Part shown: piece after piece, positions 37,634 to 48,129 of the stretch
Numbering within the stretch: the stretch's first letter is position 1
Layout: each line of letters opens with the position of its first letter
Position numbers and translations under genes: made by a program
From: Candidatus Hodarchaeum mangrovi
GTDB lineage: Archaea > Asgardarchaeota > Heimdallarchaeia > Hodarchaeales > Hodarchaeaceae
Reading direction: 5' to 3'
NCBI GenBank assembly: GCA_016839515.1
Contig: JAEOUE010000032.1
Coordinates: forward strand, 1-51,297
Length of the DNA: 51,297 nucleotides
The notes under the pieces: generated by a model
What the model saw: only the letters and a program-made list of their open reading frames with translations
Database searches by the model: none
Told to the model about the DNA's origin: nothing

Positions 37634-38374
37634 ATGCTTGGTGTCAATATCATAACAAAAACCGGAATTTTAGTTTTTAGTCATGGTTTTACAAGTAGCT
37701 ATTACGAAGACGTTGATGAAGAATTACATGCTGGTATTATGACTGCAATTCTAAATGCAATTCGTGAAACTCAAAAAGAATCTATTATTTCCATCCGTCA
37801 ACGAGAAGATTATTTTTTTTTGCTTTATGAAGGTGTTTTAACGTTTGGAATTCTTCCAACCTCCGAAGAAGATCCAAAACTCCTTGAATTTTTAAGAAAA
37901 ATTGTTTTAAAATTTGAACTTATGTATACAAAGGAATTACATCAAGATGCTATTTTAGAACGTAAATATTTTGAAGAATTTCGTCCCATAGTAAAGAAAA
38001 TGTACAGTGAAATGGTTGAAATTGATACTAAACTCCTTGACAAAATTATGGTAATAATGAAAAATTCAACCTTTACTAATTATATTATTTATGAAACTGA
38101 ATTTTTTCATCCTGTTTTCAAAGCTATTTTAGAACCAAATTTGAATTTTCACGCAGATAGGCTAACCCAGGTTTTTAGACATATTATGGATTTTGGTTTA
38201 AGAATTAATCAAAATTTTATTTCGGGAGAATTTAATTTTGAAGAAATCACCATGCATACTTTGAAAACACCTTCCCATTGTATTGCAATTTTTAATACAA
38301 ATGGACAGAGAGAAAGGGAATCCATAAGAAAGGAAATAAATCAGTTAAAAAGGAAAATTTGGGAATTAAATTAA
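37634..38374 (+). CDS. Longin-like plus roadblock/profilin-like two-domain protein (paralog A)
   Basis: VNIITKTGILVFSH..., DEELHAGIMTAILNA, KFELMY...FEEF longin pattern, then a second alpha/beta domain. Confidence 0.7.
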   Translation: MLGVNIITKTGILVFSHGFTSSYYEDVDEELHAGIMTAILNAIRETQKESIISIRQREDYFFLLYEGVLTFGILPTSEEDPKLLEFLRKIVLKFELMYTKELHQDAILERKYFEEFRPIVKKMYSEMVEIDTKLLDKIMVIMKNSTFTNYIIYETEFFHPVFKAILEPNLNFHADRLTQVFRHIMDFGLRINQNFISGEFNFEEITMHTLKTPSHCIAIFNTNGQRERESIRKEINQLKRKIWELN

Positions 38375-39120
38375 TCCACACTAATAAATTTAGATTTTAA
38401 TCTATTAATTTCATTCATGGTTTTTTCATGTAAATGAGACATAGTAATACAGATCACAAGATATTTTTCAAATTGCTCAACAATAATCCAATAACTTGAA
38501 CCCAGATTGAATGTTAGCTGAGTTATTGGATATTTAATTTTATAACTAGCTTCCAATATTGATTTACACATTAAAGCAACAGTATTCGCATGGGAATAAA
38601 GTTCTGGAATAGAGATCGTGGTAAAAACTTGGTGTAAATGGGGTTTTTCAAGGATAATATAATCCGAAAATAAAGAATCCTCCATAATCTCAATGATTTT
38701 TGATAATCCGACCACATCAATCGAAATTAAATTATCATACTTAGTTTCAAGATATTTATGAAAGTTCTGAAAGTCATTATCATCAAATTCACTAATCTCT
38801 GATGATAGTAAATCTTGAAATTGCGTCTCAAAATCTATTAATGTTGAATTAGCAAAAACTTCCTCCTTAAGATCATTTTCATAACTGAAGAAAAGACCAT
38901 AAGCAAACTTCCCTTCTACAATGTGAACGAAATATTTTCCTTGATCTATGGTTGTGATTTCTGTTTTAATATCTGAATTAGAACTACTTTCCTTGACTGC
39001 ATTTAAGACTGCAGTCATAAGACCCGCTCTTAAATCCTCATCAACATCTGAAAATCCTGGTACAAAAAAGTGAGAAAATAACAAAAGACCATCTTTTAGA
39101 GTGATATTGACACCAAGCAC
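38371..39120 (-). CDS. Longin-like plus roadblock/profilin-like two-domain protein (paralog B)
   Basis: Clear paralog of 37634..38374. GTG at 39120, preceded by GAGG, aligns with the Met of paralog A. Confidence 0.7.
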   Translation of the reverse strand: MLGVNITLKDGLLLFSHFFVPGFSDVDEDLRAGLMTAVLNAVKESSSNSDIKTEITTIDQGKYFVHIVEGKFAYGLFFSYENDLKEEVFANSTLIDFETQFQDLLSSEISEFDDNDFQNFHKYLETKYDNLISIDVVGLSKIIEIMEDSLFSDYIILEKPHLHQVFTTISIPELYSHANTVALMCKSILEASYKIKYPITQLTFNLGSSYWIIVEQFEKYLVICITMSHLHEKTMNEINRLKSKFISVD

Positions 39121-39236
39121 TGCAAAAATCCTCAAAAAATACTATTTTTTTCACTTGATTCTAACATTCTAGCTTAAGACTTTCGCTAAGATTAAAATTT
39201 ATCTATAAAAAAGCAATTAATCAAGTGAGTCTATAA

Positions 39237-40463
39237 ATGCGAATGTTAATTTTCGATCCTAGAATCTCGGGAGCTGCAGGTGACCTTTTAATTGCTGCTT
39301 TATTAGATATGAATTCTTCTAAATTTCGATTGGAGTTTTGTACACTTCTTAAAGAGCTTTTAATAAAAATTGATCCACAATTTGATATATTACATTCGGT
39401 AATAACAAAAAAAGGAATTGCTGGAACACAGATTAAAACTAAATCAAGTACTTACTTTCAGCCTCAAGAATTAACTGATCATATAACCTCCCTTGGAAAT
39501 TCGTTAAATCTATCTAAACCTGCTTTGAATCTTGCATTGAATGCAATAAATTTCATTATAGAAGCAGAATTAAAAGTGCATAATAAAGATTCAATTAACA
39601 ACACTCATTTACATGAATTAGCTTCGACAGATACACTTTTTGATATTTTGGGTTTTTCTTATCTTTTTGATAAACTTGGGTTAAATTCTTATAAACTTAT
39701 TCTACTCCCAATAGCAATTGGAGGAGGAATTATAGCCATATCTCATGGAAAGGTCTCTGTTCCTGCTCCTGCAACATTAGAAATAATAAAAAAAGCTAAC
39801 TTAATGGTTATTGGAGGACCTATTGAAAAGGAACTGCTAACACCTACAGGTGCAGCTTTATTAGCAGCTTTGAATGCTCAACCATGTACAAATATTCCAT
39901 TGATCACTGTACAAAACTATGGAAGAAGTTTGGGGACTAGAAATTATGAAAGTGAGATAATTCCTTTTCTACAAATATTGGAAGGAACTGAAGTTCAAGA
40001 ATTTCTTCAAGAAGATATCATTATTTTAGAAACAAATGTTGATGATGTTGATGGAGAGATTCTTGGGTATCTCTTTGATCTCCTTTATCAGGAACAATTA
40101 GTTTTGGATCTTTCTATGATTAATACTATTACCAAGAAAAATCGCCCAGGAATGTTAATACGTGCCATTGTTAAACCTATAAATGCTCATCAAGTCACAA
40201 ATATTCTAATTCGTCATTTAGGAACACTAGGAGTACGAATCTTACCTAGTACACGACATATAATTCCCAGACGCATAGAAACACATCATATTACTCTTAA
40301 TGGTATGAAAGAGTCAATCCAAGTAAAGAAGGGGTTTATAAAAGATGAGCTTATTTCTGAAAAGATCGAATTTGAAGATATTAAACGTCTTGCAAAGAAA
40401 AAGAAAAAAACTTTACGAGAAATACGTCAACAAATCCATTCTGATATGAAACGGGAGACTTGA
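39237..40463 (+). CDS. larC: Nickel pincer cofactor biosynthesis protein LarC (nickel insertase)
   Basis: SGAAGD, HLHE...DT..DI, HG.VSVPAPAT, ELLTPTGAA, LETNVDD, KKNRPG, TLGVR, EFED. Confidence 0.92.
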   Translation: MRMLIFDPRISGAAGDLLIAALLDMNSSKFRLEFCTLLKELLIKIDPQFDILHSVITKKGIAGTQIKTKSSTYFQPQELTDHITSLGNSLNLSKPALNLALNAINFIIEAELKVHNKDSINNTHLHELASTDTLFDILGFSYLFDKLGLNSYKLILLPIAIGGGIIAISHGKVSVPAPATLEIIKKANLMVIGGPIEKELLTPTGAALLAALNAQPCTNIPLITVQNYGRSLGTRNYESEIIPFLQILEGTEVQEFLQEDIIILETNVDDVDGEILGYLFDLLYQEQLVLDLSMINTITKKNRPGMLIRAIVKPINAHQVTNILIRHLGTLGVRILPSTRHIIPRRIETHHITLNGMKESIQVKKGFIKDELISEKIEFEDIKRLAKKKKKTLREIRQQIHSDMKRET

Positions 40464-40467
40464 AGAC

Positions 40468-41253
40468 TTGAATGAAATTGAACAAATATTATCAGATTTT
40501 AAATCGAATAAAATAACTCTTGAAGAAGCCAAAAAATTACTAAGGCTTTTCAGCTTAGAATTCATTGAAAATGAAGTTACTCTTGATTCAGGACGTTTTA
40601 AACGCAAAGGAATACCTGAAGTAATTTATGCGGAAAAAAAGAGTCCAGAAACGGTTAGAAAAATAATTCAAACTCATTTGAAAGAAAATTCATCAATTTT
40701 AGTCTCACGAGTACTAGAAAAACATCTTGGAATTATTAAAACTAATTTTGCAGAGCAATATAATATCCAAATTTCACCCCAATTTGAACCTTATTCGGTA
40801 ATTGTAGCAACAAAAGATTATCAATTTCAAAAATCAGTAAATAAAATCGGAATTCTCACTGCAGGAACTTCTGACATACCTGTTGCTGAAGAAGTCAAAG
40901 CCATTGCCAAAATGATGGGAGTAAGTACTATACAGTTTAATGATGTAGGAATTGCAGGAGTTCATAGAATTTTTGAACCATTAAAAACAATGCTACAAGA
41001 AAATGTCCGAGTTATTGTAGCAATTGCTGGGATGGAAGGAGCTTTACCTGCGATAGTCACAAGTTTAGTTCAAATTCCAGTAATTGGAGTTCCCACATCT
41101 GTAGGATATGGTTATGGAGGAAAAGGAGAAGCAGCTTTATTAACGATGTTACAAACTTGCTCTCCAGGTCTAGTAGTAGTAAATATAGATAATGGTATAA
41201 ATGCTGGCGCAACAGCGGCATTAATCATAAAACAGATTGAAGAAAAAGCATGA
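40468..41253 (+). CDS. larB: Nickel pincer cofactor biosynthesis protein LarB (PurE/AIR carboxylase-like)
   Basis: GIPEVIY, AGTSDIPVAEE, DVGIAGVHR, AGMEGALP, VPTSVGYG, VVNIDNG. Confidence 0.95.
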   Translation: MNEIEQILSDFKSNKITLEEAKKLLRLFSLEFIENEVTLDSGRFKRKGIPEVIYAEKKSPETVRKIIQTHLKENSSILVSRVLEKHLGIIKTNFAEQYNIQISPQFEPYSVIVATKDYQFQKSVNKIGILTAGTSDIPVAEEVKAIAKMMGVSTIQFNDVGIAGVHRIFEPLKTMLQENVRVIVAIAGMEGALPAIVTSLVQIPVIGVPTSVGYGYGGKGEAALLTMLQTCSPGLVVVNIDNGINAGATAALIIKQIEEKA

Positions 41254-41346
41254 AAAACAAGTAGATTAATTAATTTTACTTAAAACAACAGGCAAAAAAT
41301 CTATCAAACCGTCAGAGAAAGTGTTTTAATTGAAGGTGTAAATGAT

Positions 41347-42021
41347 ATGACTGAAAAAAAAGTGAATGAAAAAGAAATTCATGAAACAAAATCAAATAAT
41401 AACGAAAAGGATCAGATGGACCAAATATCCAATTCTGATAAAGAAACAGAAAAAAAAGATCAGTCTAAAAAGAAATATATTTTTAATTGTACAAAGTGTG
41501 GACAATGTTGCGAGAAAAGAGAAACAGTTCCATTGTCGTTGGCCGATATTCGATCATGGTCAAAATCAGGTATTTTTAATGCTGTATATCCTCATATTAA
41601 AATTAAAACTTTTCAAACAGATAATAAGAATCAATATATTGCTCTTGTTCTTGAAGGAACAGAAAAAGGATGCCCATTGTTTGACCAAGAAAACAAATTG
41701 TGCAATATATATCATTCGATGCCTTTAGAATGTAAAGCTTTTCCTTTAGGATTCAATGGACAAAATTATTACATTAAAGATAAGACAGTTCCTGGACTAG
41801 GTCAAGGTACTATGACTAAAGAAAGATTAATCGAAGATCGAGATAATGCTAGGGAAGATTTTGAAGCACGTCTTGATACACAGATATTACTTCCTCTCCT
41901 ATATTCTGCTTTTATGCAAAATATAATTGAACAACAACAGCAAATTATGGAAGAGATGCCTCAAGAAAAGCGAGAACAACTGGAAGAATTGTTGAAAAAA
42001 CCAAAATCTGATACAAAATAA
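41347..42021 (+). CDS. YkgJ-family (CxxCxxCC) cysteine cluster protein
   Basis: FNCTKCGQCC...CPLFD...CNIY..MPLECKAFP. Confidence 0.9.
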   Translation: MTEKKVNEKEIHETKSNNNEKDQMDQISNSDKETEKKDQSKKKYIFNCTKCGQCCEKRETVPLSLADIRSWSKSGIFNAVYPHIKIKTFQTDNKNQYIALVLEGTEKGCPLFDQENKLCNIYHSMPLECKAFPLGFNGQNYYIKDKTVPGLGQGTMTKERLIEDRDNAREDFEARLDTQILLPLLYSAFMQNIIEQQQQIMEEMPQEKREQLEELLKKPKSDTK

Positions 42022-42651
42022 TCAAGCTTGAGGATTATATCCACAATTTGAACATTCCCATCTGGCAATGGGAATTGTAATCCCCTTAATTTCTTCTGAA
42101 TAAGGTAAAAGATTTCCTTTACCACATTTTGGGCATAATGGAGTATCAATTTTTGTTCTGCTATTTTTCTGAAATAACTGAGATTGTACCAATTTTTTCG
42201 AAGTGTGAGTCTTTCTCTTCGAGATTTTTGAGGGTGACTTTTCCCTTGAACTAACCTTAACTTTTGAAATTCGTTTTTTAGTATCTTTATTTACCGCTTT
42301 CACATCTTGAGTTTGTTCTATTACTGATGTTATAACAGTAGATTGATCCATCGGCCCTAAACCTTCTTCAGGTACATCTTCAATGCATATCCAGAAATCT
42401 TCAGGTTCACTTCCTTGGTCAGCGGACCGAACACGCAAAGTTAAACCATATAATCGCCGAATTTCTTGAGCCACTGTGCTTGATATAAAACGGGTTCGTA
42501 CATGTGCTCCTTGGCCTATCCAGATCCATAGTTCCTTTCTTTCTTCCACAACAAGAATAAAGACTTCACCTGATTTTAAATCTTCCTTTTTAAAGGCGAC
42601 AGGATCCCAATTACCATCATCTTGTACTTGATAAGCAACAAGTCGTGCCAA
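42022..42651 (-). CDS. Gelsolin-domain protein with basic linker and C-terminal zinc ribbon
   Basis: LKSGEVFIL...LWIWIG...AQEI...DQGSEPEDFW gelsolin signature; C-terminal CPKC...CSNC. Confidence 0.82.
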   Translation of the reverse strand: MARLVAYQVQDDGNWDPVAFKKEDLKSGEVFILVVEERKELWIWIGQGAHVRTRFISSTVAQEIRRLYGLTLRVRSADQGSEPEDFWICIEDVPEEGLGPMDQSTVITSVIEQTQDVKAVNKDTKKRISKVKVSSREKSPSKISKRKTHTSKKLVQSQLFQKNSRTKIDTPLCPKCGKGNLLPYSEEIKGITIPIARWECSNCGYNPQA

Positions 42652-42725
42652 AATTAAGAACCACTCAAAAGTAAAGCATCTATGTGTTGAAATAATACCC
42701 TTTTAAAAAATTTGAGTGTAGATTA

Positions 42726-43349
42726 TTAATTTCCTAATAAAGCCTCAATCTTAAAGATATGGAGAGGAATGCATTTATATTGAACTGTTTTAGTTAAGAT
42801 GAACTCTTTGGGGGTTTCTATAAGCTTATCAAAACTAAGAAAATCAATAAAGTTATTTGGAGGAGGATCCAAAATCTTGGGGAGGCGTGTTTCAACATTA
42901 TATTCGTTTAGGAATAGTCCAGAAATAGTCGACTTTTTTCTTTTAATTGTAATAATCCCTTTATTTAACTTTATAACGCATAATCGCTCAGGTAATATTA
43001 TCTTACTCCGTTTCCAATGAATTTTCATATCATATGAAGGGGAGAAAATGAATTTAAACGAGGGAGTCCAAAAAAACCCAATTTGTAGCAATAAAAATAT
43101 AGAGATTAGAATTATTAATCCTGCAACTTCATTCATTACTGGTTTTATTGGTTGTAACAATCTAACATATGAATCAGCTATTTCAAAAGAGAACTGTTCA
43201 GGAGGGGAATTACTAGAAGTAGGACCCAAGGTATTCGGAAGAGGAACAATGAAGATGAATAGAACAATACTGCAGCTTATAGCTGTTATCCCAAGAAAAA
43301 GCTTAGTTTTTCTAATTCTTTTATCAGGAATTAATAACAAATTTTTCAA
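42726..43349 (-). CDS. Hypothetical membrane protein (2 TM plus basic C-terminal domain)
   Basis: Two hydrophobic helices; TTG start overlaps the upstream stop. Confidence 0.6.
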   Translation of the reverse strand: MKNLLLIPDKRIRKTKLFLGITAISCSIVLFIFIVPLPNTLGPTSSNSPPEQFSFEIADSYVRLLQPIKPVMNEVAGLIILISIFLLLQIGFFWTPSFKFIFSPSYDMKIHWKRSKIILPERLCVIKLNKGIITIKRKKSTISGLFLNEYNVETRLPKILDPPPNNFIDFLSFDKLIETPKEFILTKTVQYKCIPLHIFKIEALLGN

Positions 43350-43816
43350 TCTCCTTTATTTCTAGTTAAGAGTTCCTGTAATTTTTCTCCATGTAATTGA
43401 ACTAACTCAATCATACGTTGAACAAGTTTATTATCTGCATTCGCATATGCAAGCTTCATTCTTGAATGGATTTCGTCTAACATAACTAAATTATCTTTTT
43501 CCAAAGCTTTGAGATCATTATATATTGATTTGGACTTGACTGAAATACCTAAAGTCCTTGCGATATCAATCCCAGAGAGTCCTTGTGGATAAATAGCGAT
43601 AAGCTGCATAAGTATCAATCTTTTGTGAAAGGATAAAGGGGTTGTGAATAGGTAAACAATTGATGAATAATAATCACGTGTAAGATTTAGTAACCTCTGG
43701 GTTAATATTGTAATGTACTGACTAATCTCAGGACGAACTTGAGCTGTGGTTTCCAATGAATTTAATATATCACGAATTGTATTATCACTTTTTGTTTTTT
43801 CACTGGATGAAGTCAT
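43346..43816 (-). CDS. Winged-helix DNA-binding protein
   Basis: GLSGIDIARTLGIS..SKSIYNDLKALEKDNLV. Confidence 0.8.
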   Translation of the reverse strand: MTSSSEKTKSDNTIRDILNSLETTAQVRPEISQYITILTQRLLNLTRDYYSSIVYLFTTPLSFHKRLILMQLIAIYPQGLSGIDIARTLGISVKSKSIYNDLKALEKDNLVMLDEIHSRMKLAYANADNKLVQRMIELVQLHGEKLQELLTRNKGD

Positions 43817-46857: not shown

Positions 46858-48129
46858 TTAAAATTCATCTAATGACTCTGGAGTTGTCACATATTTTTGG
46901 AGAACTAAGTGTAATGGCTGAAATTCCATATCTTCCGGTGTGTTTTCTTTTAATATCCTTGCTAGATATCGAGCTCTTTCAGATCCTTCTTCTTGAGATA
47001 TTTGTGTAAATAACTTGTCATATGCAGAAGCATCTAAAGAAGCTAAAATGTCTCCAACTTTTTCGTAATATTCTTTTGAGATAGATGAATCACTGAGTAA
47101 TTCAATTAATAATAATACCATCTTTTTATTAGATTGAGTTATTGTCCTAATAACTTCGTGCTCTTCATCTCCTGCATTCCTCAGATGGTGAACCAATACT
47201 TCATATGCTTCATTTGTAGCATTTTCTTGAAGAGCATATAAAACTTCTAAACGTATGTATTCAGAAGTTTCAGGTTTAGAAAGAACCTCTTTTAATACTG
47301 GTACTGAGGATGGATCTTTAATTTTTCCAAGGACTTCAATAAGAGCTCCACAAATATTCTCAGATTCACAATTAACAAGTGCTTCAGCTAAATAAGGAGT
47401 TGCACTAGATTGAAAACGGACAAGGATTGCACGAACAGTCTGATCACGACGTTGATCAAACTTTCCTAGCATCGTTAGAAGTGGAAGAATTGCTTTTTCT
47501 TCTTTCATTTCAGCTAAAGCATATCCTGCTGCAAGTTTTGACTCAATGTCTTCCTCATAATTATTAAGTACTTCCAACATTTTTGTTTTTGATTGAGCTG
47601 CTTTTTCTTTCATATTAGCAAGGATAAAGATTAATTGTTGTTTTTGTTTAGGTAATTTTGTGTCAAAAACCTGTAATATTGAAGGAACTCTGTTTGACCA
47701 ACATTCCTGCCACATGGATGCCTTATGACATTTTAAAAAGGTGTCATCAAATACAGCATCTTTTGGTCGGATTTGTTCTGCAATACAATAAAATGTCAAA
47801 CGCTTTCGTTTAAGGAAGGGACATTTCGTTTTATAATTTAAATACTGCATTCCAGAACGAATTGTCAATAATTGATAAGCAAATATTTCAAACCATCGAC
47901 CGATTTGAAAGAGGGTATAAGGCAATAAGATCATAAAAACGATAAAAGTAATAACTATTCCAATTAATTCTAGGGATAATATCAAACCATAATAAGAAAA
48001 AAACAATAACCAAGCAAAAAAGGCCATTATTGAGGATATAAGGGTATTGATAACATCTGATGTAAATTTAGGTCCCTTTACGATCGGATCAAAGGATTGT
48101 TGTGGGGTATCTAGCACATCTGAAACCAT
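46858..48129 (-). CDS. Membrane protein with Cys-containing domain and HEAT/PBS-lyase repeats
   Basis: Two TM helices, CPFL..YC..KC..EC, then repeats such as AAGYALAEMKEEKAILPLL and LIEVLGKIKDPSSVPVL. Confidence 0.8.
   Translation of the reverse strand: MVSDVLDTPQQSFDPIVKGPKFTSDVINTLISSIMAFFAWLLFFSYYGLILSLELIGIVITFIVFMILLPYTLFQIGRWFEIFAYQLLTIRSGMQYLNYKTKCPFLKRKRLTFYCIAEQIRPKDAVFDDTFLKCHKASMWQECWSNRVPSILQVFDTKLPKQKQQLIFILANMKEKAAQSKTKMLEVLNNYEEDIESKLAAGYALAEMKEEKAILPLLTMLGKFDQRRDQTVRAILVRFQSSATPYLAEALVNCESENICGALIEVLGKIKDPSSVPVLKEVLSKPETSEYIRLEVLYALQENATNEAYEVLVHHLRNAGDEEHEVIRTITQSNKKMVLLLIELLSDSSISKEYYEKVGDILASLDASAYDKLFTQISQEEGSERARYLARILKENTPEDMEFQPLHLVLQKYVTTPESLDEF

Follow-up and report, generated by a model that had tools for sequence, protein, structure and literature searches.

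A one-domain Asgard gelsolin with a basic linker and a C-terminal C4 zinc ribbon in a family of Hodarchaeales

The window analysed here, a stretch of 51,297 nucleotides from Candidatus Hodarchaeum mangrovi, contains a gene whose product joins a gelsolin domain, a disordered linker and a zinc ribbon (Table 1). The gene had been proposed in a first-pass annotation and was verified as a real 209-aa open reading frame on the minus strand with a TTG start. In the AlphaFold model the head (residues 1-95) and the C-terminal hairpin are folded and flank a middle part of low confidence. The alignment of homologues follows the same division, the mean column conservation being 0.76 (head), 0.37 (linker) and 0.73 (ribbon), and the extension of approximately 115 residues C-terminal to the gelsolin domain is kept throughout the homologues. 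All four cysteines are retained in 65 of 66 homologues (one Cys is replaced in the remaining protein), and the features of the architecture are therefore not attributable to chance. The protein appears to be a lineage-specific variant of known Asgard gelsolin designs, composed of one domain, a charged tether and a ribbon.

Table 1. Positions of the gelsolin-ribbon gene, its parts and its two upstream neighbours in the window
Feature	Position	Strand	Basis or remark
Whole gene	42022..42651	minus	encodes 209 aa (gelsolin head, basic linker and C4 ribbon); initiated by TTG, terminated by TAA
Gelsolin-homology domain of the ProGel/1DGelX type, one copy, aa 1-95	42367..42651	minus	PF00626, Foldseek, VIA-align
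Disordered linker, aa 96-167	42151..42366	minus	pLDDT <50; net charge across homologues
Basic Lys/Ser tract of linker, aa 117-153	42193-42303	minus	
C4 zinc ribbon, aa 168-207, CPKC-x23-CSNC, long beta-hairpin	42031..42150	minus	predicted metal binding
Arg65 codon, column of the 2DGel Type I Ca2+ Asp	42457..42459	minus	alignment
Thr53 codon, column of the 2DGel Type II Ca2+ Glu	42493..42495	minus	alignment
Candidate own TATA-like box	42701-42710	minus, 5' of start	by eye
Candidate purine-rich ribosome-binding-like hexamer	42661-42666	minus, 5' of start	by eye
Upstream neighbour, two-TM protein with beta-rich soluble C-terminal part	42726-43349	minus	kept in 19/19 loci
HTH-like protein gene, two genes upstream	43346-43816	minus	

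No family above cut-off was found in Pfam or NCBIfam for the HTH-like and two-TM proteins encoded upstream, and the two-TM protein, whose soluble domain is conserved, gave no consistent Pfam or PDB match. Three consecutive plus-strand genes (39237-42021) encode a nickel-insertion protein (PF01969), an AIR-carboxylase-like protein (PF00731) and a CxxCxxCC protein (PF03692); these are presumably LarC/LarB-like nickel-cofactor genes. Two convergent genes (37634-38374, plus strand, and 38371-39135, minus strand) encode similar-looking proteins of approximately 250 residues that gave no Pfam match at an E-value of 0.1 and that we take to resemble longin-type domains. The minus-strand gene at 46858-48129 encodes a HEAT-repeat protein (PF13646) with a hydrophobic N-terminal part and a segment that contains Cys.

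The gelsolin motifs noted in the first-pass annotation are present, namely LKSGEVFIL (residues 25-33), WIWIG (42-46) and QGSEPEDFW (79-87), and its assignment of a gelsolin domain was borne out by a Pfam match and a ProGel-like model. The Pfam Gelsolin match (PF00626) covers one stretch only, residues 17-87, and reaches 22 bits against a cut-off of 21. Thor ProGel (PDB 7C2F), which likewise has no Ca2+ sites, is the closest solved structure: it was the top Foldseek match of the head model (7c2f, E 1.9e-6), and VIA-align superposed 87 residues with a Z-score of 14.1, an rmsd of 1.6 A and 20% identity, followed by a runner-up at Z 11.9 and by Sec23a at Z 9.2. ProGel is a bare domain, whereas the protein described here adds about 115 residues. 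The gelsolin fold, the WxG motif and the long helix place the head in the gelsolin superfamily, and the presence of exactly one gelsolin domain assigns the protein to the one-domain Asgard class. Residues W44, G46, F55, A61, I64, R65, E82 and F86 are invariant in the homologue alignment.

A search with PF00022 detected one actin in the genome, which is 97-98% identical across the genus, and all 26 actins checked (26/26) retain the VP[IV]YEGF motif. The actin gene lies on a different contig and does not adjoin the gelsolin gene, which was counted against a role in actin regulation. The domain could instead have been repurposed for interaction with a protein other than actin, as in Sec23/24, making the protein an adaptor outside the cytoskeleton. 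Six gelsolin-domain open reading frames are present in the genome, this gene included, so that paralogues would be free to diverge, and the binding of ProGel itself to G-actin is reported as negligible in the available part of PMC7444086. However, the residue pattern of the long helix is common to the head and to actin-binding one-domain gelsolins, and the head resembles ProGel (Z 14.1) more than Sec23a (Z 9.2); such an adaptor is thus considered highly improbable. The order of domains also differs, as Sec23 and Sec24 carry an N-terminal zinc finger followed by trunk, barrel and helical domains and then a gelsolin-like domain, whereas the present protein of 209 aa has the reverse order and none of the middle domains. 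The 23 families listed for the ribbon and the 25 listed out of 44 for the alignment do not include PF04810, which we take to be the Sec23/24-type zinc finger, and Sec23/24 was not among the listed fold-search matches of the ribbon; absence from these lists does not amount to exclusion.

Positions 29, 53 and 65 were assumed from gelsolin numbering to be Type I and Type II Ca2+ ligand positions, with which the 2DGel alignments agree. The acidic ligands of both sites are absent in all 65 aligned homologues. Arg65 is an arginine in 65 of 65, and the matching column holds an aspartate in 13 of 13 Loki-type 2DGel-Zn domains. Position 53 is occupied by T (55), S (7), N (2) or I (1) and never by E (0/65), the residue found in this column in 13/13 of the 2DGel-Zn domains. 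At position 29 either E or Q is seen (E in 49 of 65, D in none), as opposed to D in 13/13 2DGel-Zn domains. An equivalent of Arg65 is also found in 16 of 18 rows labelled as 1DGelX by a motif rule and in 30 of 40 short one-domain rows. Because the acidic ligands of both sites have been lost, the protein should be independent of Ca2+, and no effect of Ca2+ on its actin activity should be seen.

In a tree of 205 rows the homologues form one clade (SH-aLRT 92, or 84 with the divergent homologue P0071), which sits among one-domain Asgard gelsolins and away from the 2DGel domains; the deep split is weakly supported (73). When 46 of these 205 rows were subjected to an AU test, from which P0071, L079 and P0217 were omitted, kinship was rejected neither with domain 2 of 2DGel (p 0.082) nor with all 2DGel domains (p 0.151). 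As joint grouping was not rejected, the tree by itself does not settle a possible descent from 2DGel-Zn proteins. An origin from a Loki-type 2DGel-Zn protein through loss of domain 1 is disfavoured by the residue pattern and by the lack of detectable homology between the ribbons.

The cysteine spacing of the ribbon had been annotated as CPKC-x18-CSNC and is in fact CPKC-x23-CSNC (C173, C176, C200 and C203). The ribbon was modelled with a pLDDT of 89.5. Its exposed hydrophobic positions are kept (LLP[YF]S, LP[FY] and W), and the net charge of the hairpin tip ranges from -4 to +5 over 65 homologues, being below zero in 14 of them. Prediction of a ribbon homodimer (two copies of residues 162-209 with Zn) gave scores of 0.04, 0.39 and 0.02 against a mark of 0.42, which speaks neither for nor against dimerization.

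Relatives of the ribbon were found among small stand-alone proteins. Those of the Asgard family f11 match it with a probability of 98% in hhalign and outscore 481 of 481 unrelated C4 windows of its own genome in both directions. In the ESM Atlas they are similar to unnamed bacterial clusters (0.96-0.97), and the best match there of the ribbon alone (0.82) is a lead only. A homologue search with the f11 protein returned one protein from one candidate. The f11 genes (L054:1420-1644, L055:1459-1704 and L056:1465-1710) encode proteins of approximately 75 aa without a Pfam match above cut-off and lie, at all three loci, between HypB-like GTPase and 2-hydroxyacid dehydrogenase-like genes, these neighbours being named by eye. 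The top Foldseek rows for the ribbon were TA0289 (probability 0.95-0.98, 44-46% identity over 39-43 columns) at a weak E-value of 0.23. DUF1936 was the best Pfam match of one stand-alone ribbon homologue (E 3.6e-4), with a score of 15 bits that is under the cut-off of 25. TA0289 was absent from the 28 VIA-align rows for the ribbon, in which the best Z-score was 2.8, to other ribbons. The ribbon of TA0289 (DUF1936; PDB 2QH1, 1PVM) and unnamed prokaryotic stand-alone proteins of 60-80 aa share the knuckle pattern CPKCxxGxLxP ... W-x-C with the present ribbon. However, the former follows CBS domains and the latter are free, whereas the ribbon here is fused to gelsolin; their second knuckle is CxxxxC with a further C-terminal segment, whereas here it is CxxC and the segment is absent. 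The label DUF3716, a single NCBI name that matched 12 of 21 members at E <=1 (best 3.4e-6), was taken to be a superficial match of the cysteine pattern.

These matches bear on a possible metal or redox switch, in which a rubredoxin-like C4 module may hold Fe and oxidation or metal exchange would replace Ca2+ as the input of the head. The TA0289 entry at the top of the Foldseek rows is titled CBS-rubredoxin-like protein in its Fe2+-bound state, and the DUF1936 match and the loss of the Ca2+ ligands point in the same direction. Against this, the Foldseek match has an E-value of 0.23, Pfam scores stay under cut-off, other one-domain gelsolins without Ca2+ sites have no ribbon, and a floppy linker of 70 residues offers no obvious allosteric path. 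A switch of this kind is judged very unlikely.

The first-pass annotation had regarded the fusion of gelsolin and a zinc ribbon as being without precedent. This does not hold for the arrangement as such, as a gelsolin-linker-zinc order has been published for Loki2DGel (PMC9433394), in which the commonest form carries two gelsolin domains, a linker of 69-79 aa and a C-terminal (CxxC)2 zinc domain. It appears to hold for the one-domain form that lacks Ca2+ sites and carries a different ribbon: no one-domain gelsolin with this ribbon was found in the accessible literature searched, including the available parts of PMC6393860, bioRxiv 2020.10.19.343400, bioRxiv 2025.02.26.640444 and PMC13716822. 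Loki2DGel (MKD1-2DGel, PDB 7WHG; PMC9433394) resembles the present protein in its C-terminal (CxxC)2 domain behind a charged linker. Unlike the latter, it has a pair of gelsolin domains that bear Ca2+ sites and are separated by a WH2-like motif, and its linker is acidic (pI 4.6-4.7, PMC9433394) rather than basic. The Loki zinc domain also has a Tyr-tipped loop, whereas the ribbon here is without a Tyr-Pro tip.

The Loki zinc domain is described as exclusive to Loki, where it is also found alone and on other proteins (available part of PMC9433394). In our searches, the Loki ribbon was detected in 153 of 400 Asgard genomes, whereas the window's GTDB family, with 22 genomes, yielded no match. A profile of the ribbon studied here gave no match to 7whg_G at E-values up to 10. 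The two ribbons aligned in hhalign with a probability of 73%, above 60 of 60 column shuffles, although shuffling destroys generic knuckle features. Of 481 unrelated C4 windows from its own genome, 179 equalled or exceeded the score of the median Loki ribbon; in the reverse direction 87 did so. Judged by these comparisons, the ribbon appears to resemble the Loki ribbon no more closely than unrelated C4 motifs do, and homology between the two is not detectable; a very remote tie is possible. An independent fusion is suggested because the ribbon matches small stand-alone prokaryotic zinc-ribbon proteins and not the Loki ribbon. The simplest history would be that a one-domain gelsolin captured its ribbon from a free prokaryotic zinc-ribbon protein, in an event distinct from that in Loki.

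Out of 166 candidates, a homologue search retained 66 proteins, two of which are the window's own protein and a near-copy. The 13 named homologues comprise eight from Hodarchaeales/Hodarchaeota, two from Heimdallarchaeota and one each from Hermodarchaeota, Thorarchaeota and Promethearchaeota. The window's GTDB genus and family are represented by 22 genomes, of which 19 contain the full gene and two contain it cut by an N-run, and in one it was not found; 19 genomes from other families of the same order or class matched through the gelsolin domain only. With the ribbon profile, 31 of 400 Asgard genomes were matched, of which 21 belong to the window's family and carry one copy each and three to family f11 (3 of 4 genomes, E 4e-8 to 7e-7); seven further marginal matches (E 2e-4 to 7e-4) are other proteins. 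Among these 400 genomes, the gelsolin-ribbon gene was not found beyond the window's GTDB family. The divergent homologue P0071 (199 aa) has the same architecture, and the range may therefore be somewhat wider than one family. When P0071 was traced in GTDB genomes, only two short matches were obtained, in bacterial records and in frames without such a gene.

A ribbon search of longer proteins gave 76 matches. Because 73 of these carry a gelsolin domain (203-261 aa) and the other three start inside the linker, the ribbon is, as far as these sequences tell, no promiscuous tag here, unlike the Loki zinc domain. Stand-alone ribbons suspected in the genomes G006 and G015 were both rejected, as each is this gene split at a joint of 100 N in the usual neighbourhood. 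In these single-contig genomes (G015 and G006) such joints (L031:2795-2894 and L032:2896-2995) have unrelated flanks, and synteny across them is meaningless. A single protein, P0100, seen once on a contig of 506 bases, shows this ribbon behind an unrelated, NAL1_N-like N-terminus and is probably an assembly chimera.

The linker was described in the first-pass annotation as acidic and then very basic. Both tracts are present in the window's protein (residues 89-116 contain seven D/E and no K/R; residues 117-153 contain 15 K/R, two D/E and seven S), but the acidic first part is not a trait of the family, since its first third has a median net charge of 0 when 65 homologues are considered. The pLDDT is below 50 over residues 102-138 and 142-165. 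The linker, 48-100 residues long, has a positive net charge in 64 of 65 homologues (median +10) and is composed of 23% K, 12% T, 11% S and 8% P; its sequence is poorly conserved and its charge is conserved. The 60 residues after the gelsolin domain have a median net charge of +13 (n=21) compared with 0 in 108 other long gelsolin proteins, kin not being independent. The linker looks like a selected polyanion-binding tether, for which F-actin, lipid and DNA are indistinguishable by sequence. Since the charge of the ribbon tip varies from -4 to +5, the basic linker is the likelier agent of any coupling to nucleic acid or membrane.

Gene order was conserved at 19 of 19 loci, where an HTH gene, a two-TM gene, the gelsolin gene and a convergent CxxCxxCC gene follow each other. 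This order is not evidence for an operon because unrelated neighbours are also kept and the gap between the two-TM and gelsolin genes, where measurable, spans 74-249 bases. The neighbourhood nevertheless bears on the possibility of a membrane-cortex anchor, in which the linker would bind anionic archaeal lipids and/or the ribbon would bind the two-TM neighbour, so that actin is held at the membrane of protrusions. The polybasic character of the linker, the same-strand position of the two-TM gene with its conserved soluble domain directly upstream at every locus, and the actin-filled protrusions of Hodarchaeales cells (bioRxiv 2025.02.26.640444; PMC13716822) are in line with such an anchor, which we still hold to be unlikely given that the intervening gap may contain a promoter of its own and that unrelated neighbours are likewise syntenic. 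The protein could also tether actin to the nucleoid, with the head on actin and the histone H1-like Lys/Ser/Thr/Pro linker, helped by the ribbon, on DNA or RNA. The composition of the linker, the many nucleic acid-associated ribbons among the weak Pfam and fold neighbours of the ribbon and the conserved HTH gene two genes upstream would fit this idea. However, 14 of 65 homologues have a ribbon tip of negative net charge, and the matches of the ribbon are weak and of a generic kind (Foldseek E at least 0.23, best Z 2.8). Polybasic tails bind polyanions of every sort, and the link to the HTH gene is weak because synteny extends to the wider neighbourhood, metabolic genes among it. A nucleoid tether is regarded as improbable.

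Published data on Thor proteins allow the head and its extension to be placed in a functional context. One-domain gelsolins of Thor bind actin and act without Ca2+ (PMC7444086). ProGel binds with a Kd of 337 uM and bundles, whereas 1DGelX has a Kd of 7.7 uM and severs, an effect that the authors ascribe to the tail (available part of PMC7444086). 1DGelX resembles the present protein in having one domain without Ca2+ ligands and a C-terminal extension, to which a contribution to filament binding or to targeting is ascribed (PMC7444086). Its extension, domain X, is a predicted coiled coil, whereas a disordered polybasic linker and a beta-hairpin C4 ribbon are found here.

It is fairly probable that the protein is a constitutive, Ca2+-independent binder of actin filaments, whose ProGel-like head, weak by itself, would owe added avidity to the basic tether and whose ribbon would dock a protein, the functional steps being inferred. 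Points in favour of this reading are the ProGel match of the head, its place among one-domain gelsolins in the tree, the invariant residues, the actin encoded in the genome, the basic charge of the linker and the exposed hydrophobic positions that the ribbon keeps while its tip charge varies. Taken alone, and like ProGel, the head would bind weakly to the cell's actin, at its gelsolin/cofilin groove and without a Ca2+ switch, and Arg65 may replace the ion at the actin Glu. The polybasic tether of approximately 70 residues would provide electrostatic avidity for acidic filaments or anionic membrane and could turn the weak head into a side-binder, bundler or severer, comparable to the role proposed for the 1DGelX tail. 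The zinc ribbon would be a structural docking module that positions the protein via a partner protein. Two published observations were counted against a function in actin regulation: AF2 models of the Loki zinc domain show no close actin contact in the available part of PMC9433394, and in L. ossiferum four of nine gelsolin-domain proteins were not enriched with actin according to the available part of PMC13716822. A more far-reaching and unlikely scenario is that a Ca2+-blind gelsolin captured a free prokaryotic Zn/rubredoxin-like ribbon together with an H1-like tether, independently of Loki, and became a dedicated actin-nucleoid coupler or membrane anchor. If this were true, the gelsolin would position cargo rather than cut filaments.

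Hodarchaeales are the order proposed as the closest relatives of eukaryotes. The protein is a single-copy, near-universal gelsolin of one Hodarchaeales-type family and carries the clear prediction of Ca2+ independence with avidity derived from the tail. Members of the order have been cultured and show actin-dependent protrusions and crawling (PMC13716822), and the published gelsolin work found in the available sources covers Thor, Loki and one Heimdall 2DGel. No eukaryotic counterpart of the gelsolin-ribbon protein was found, and because the protein is also restricted to one family it tells more of lineage-specific tinkering than of the eukaryotic ancestor.

Other combinations of gelsolin domains and cysteine motifs were observed. 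P0122, named Helarchaeota, has an N-terminal ribbon followed by three gelsolin domains, and P0086, P0115 and P0181 are further gelsolin-plus-Cys4 proteins with a different Cys tail on one domain or with ribbons between or before domains. The capture of zinc ribbons by gelsolins seems to be recurrent in Asgard archaea, and the apparently independent captures in Loki, Hel and Hodarchaeales gelsolins suggest that actin regulators in these lineages have a common requirement for a docking module. In four two-domain gelsolins (P0068, P0069, P0072 and P0083), both domains are of the one-domain type without Ca2+ sites and group with one another; these are tandem duplications that arose apart from 2DGel.
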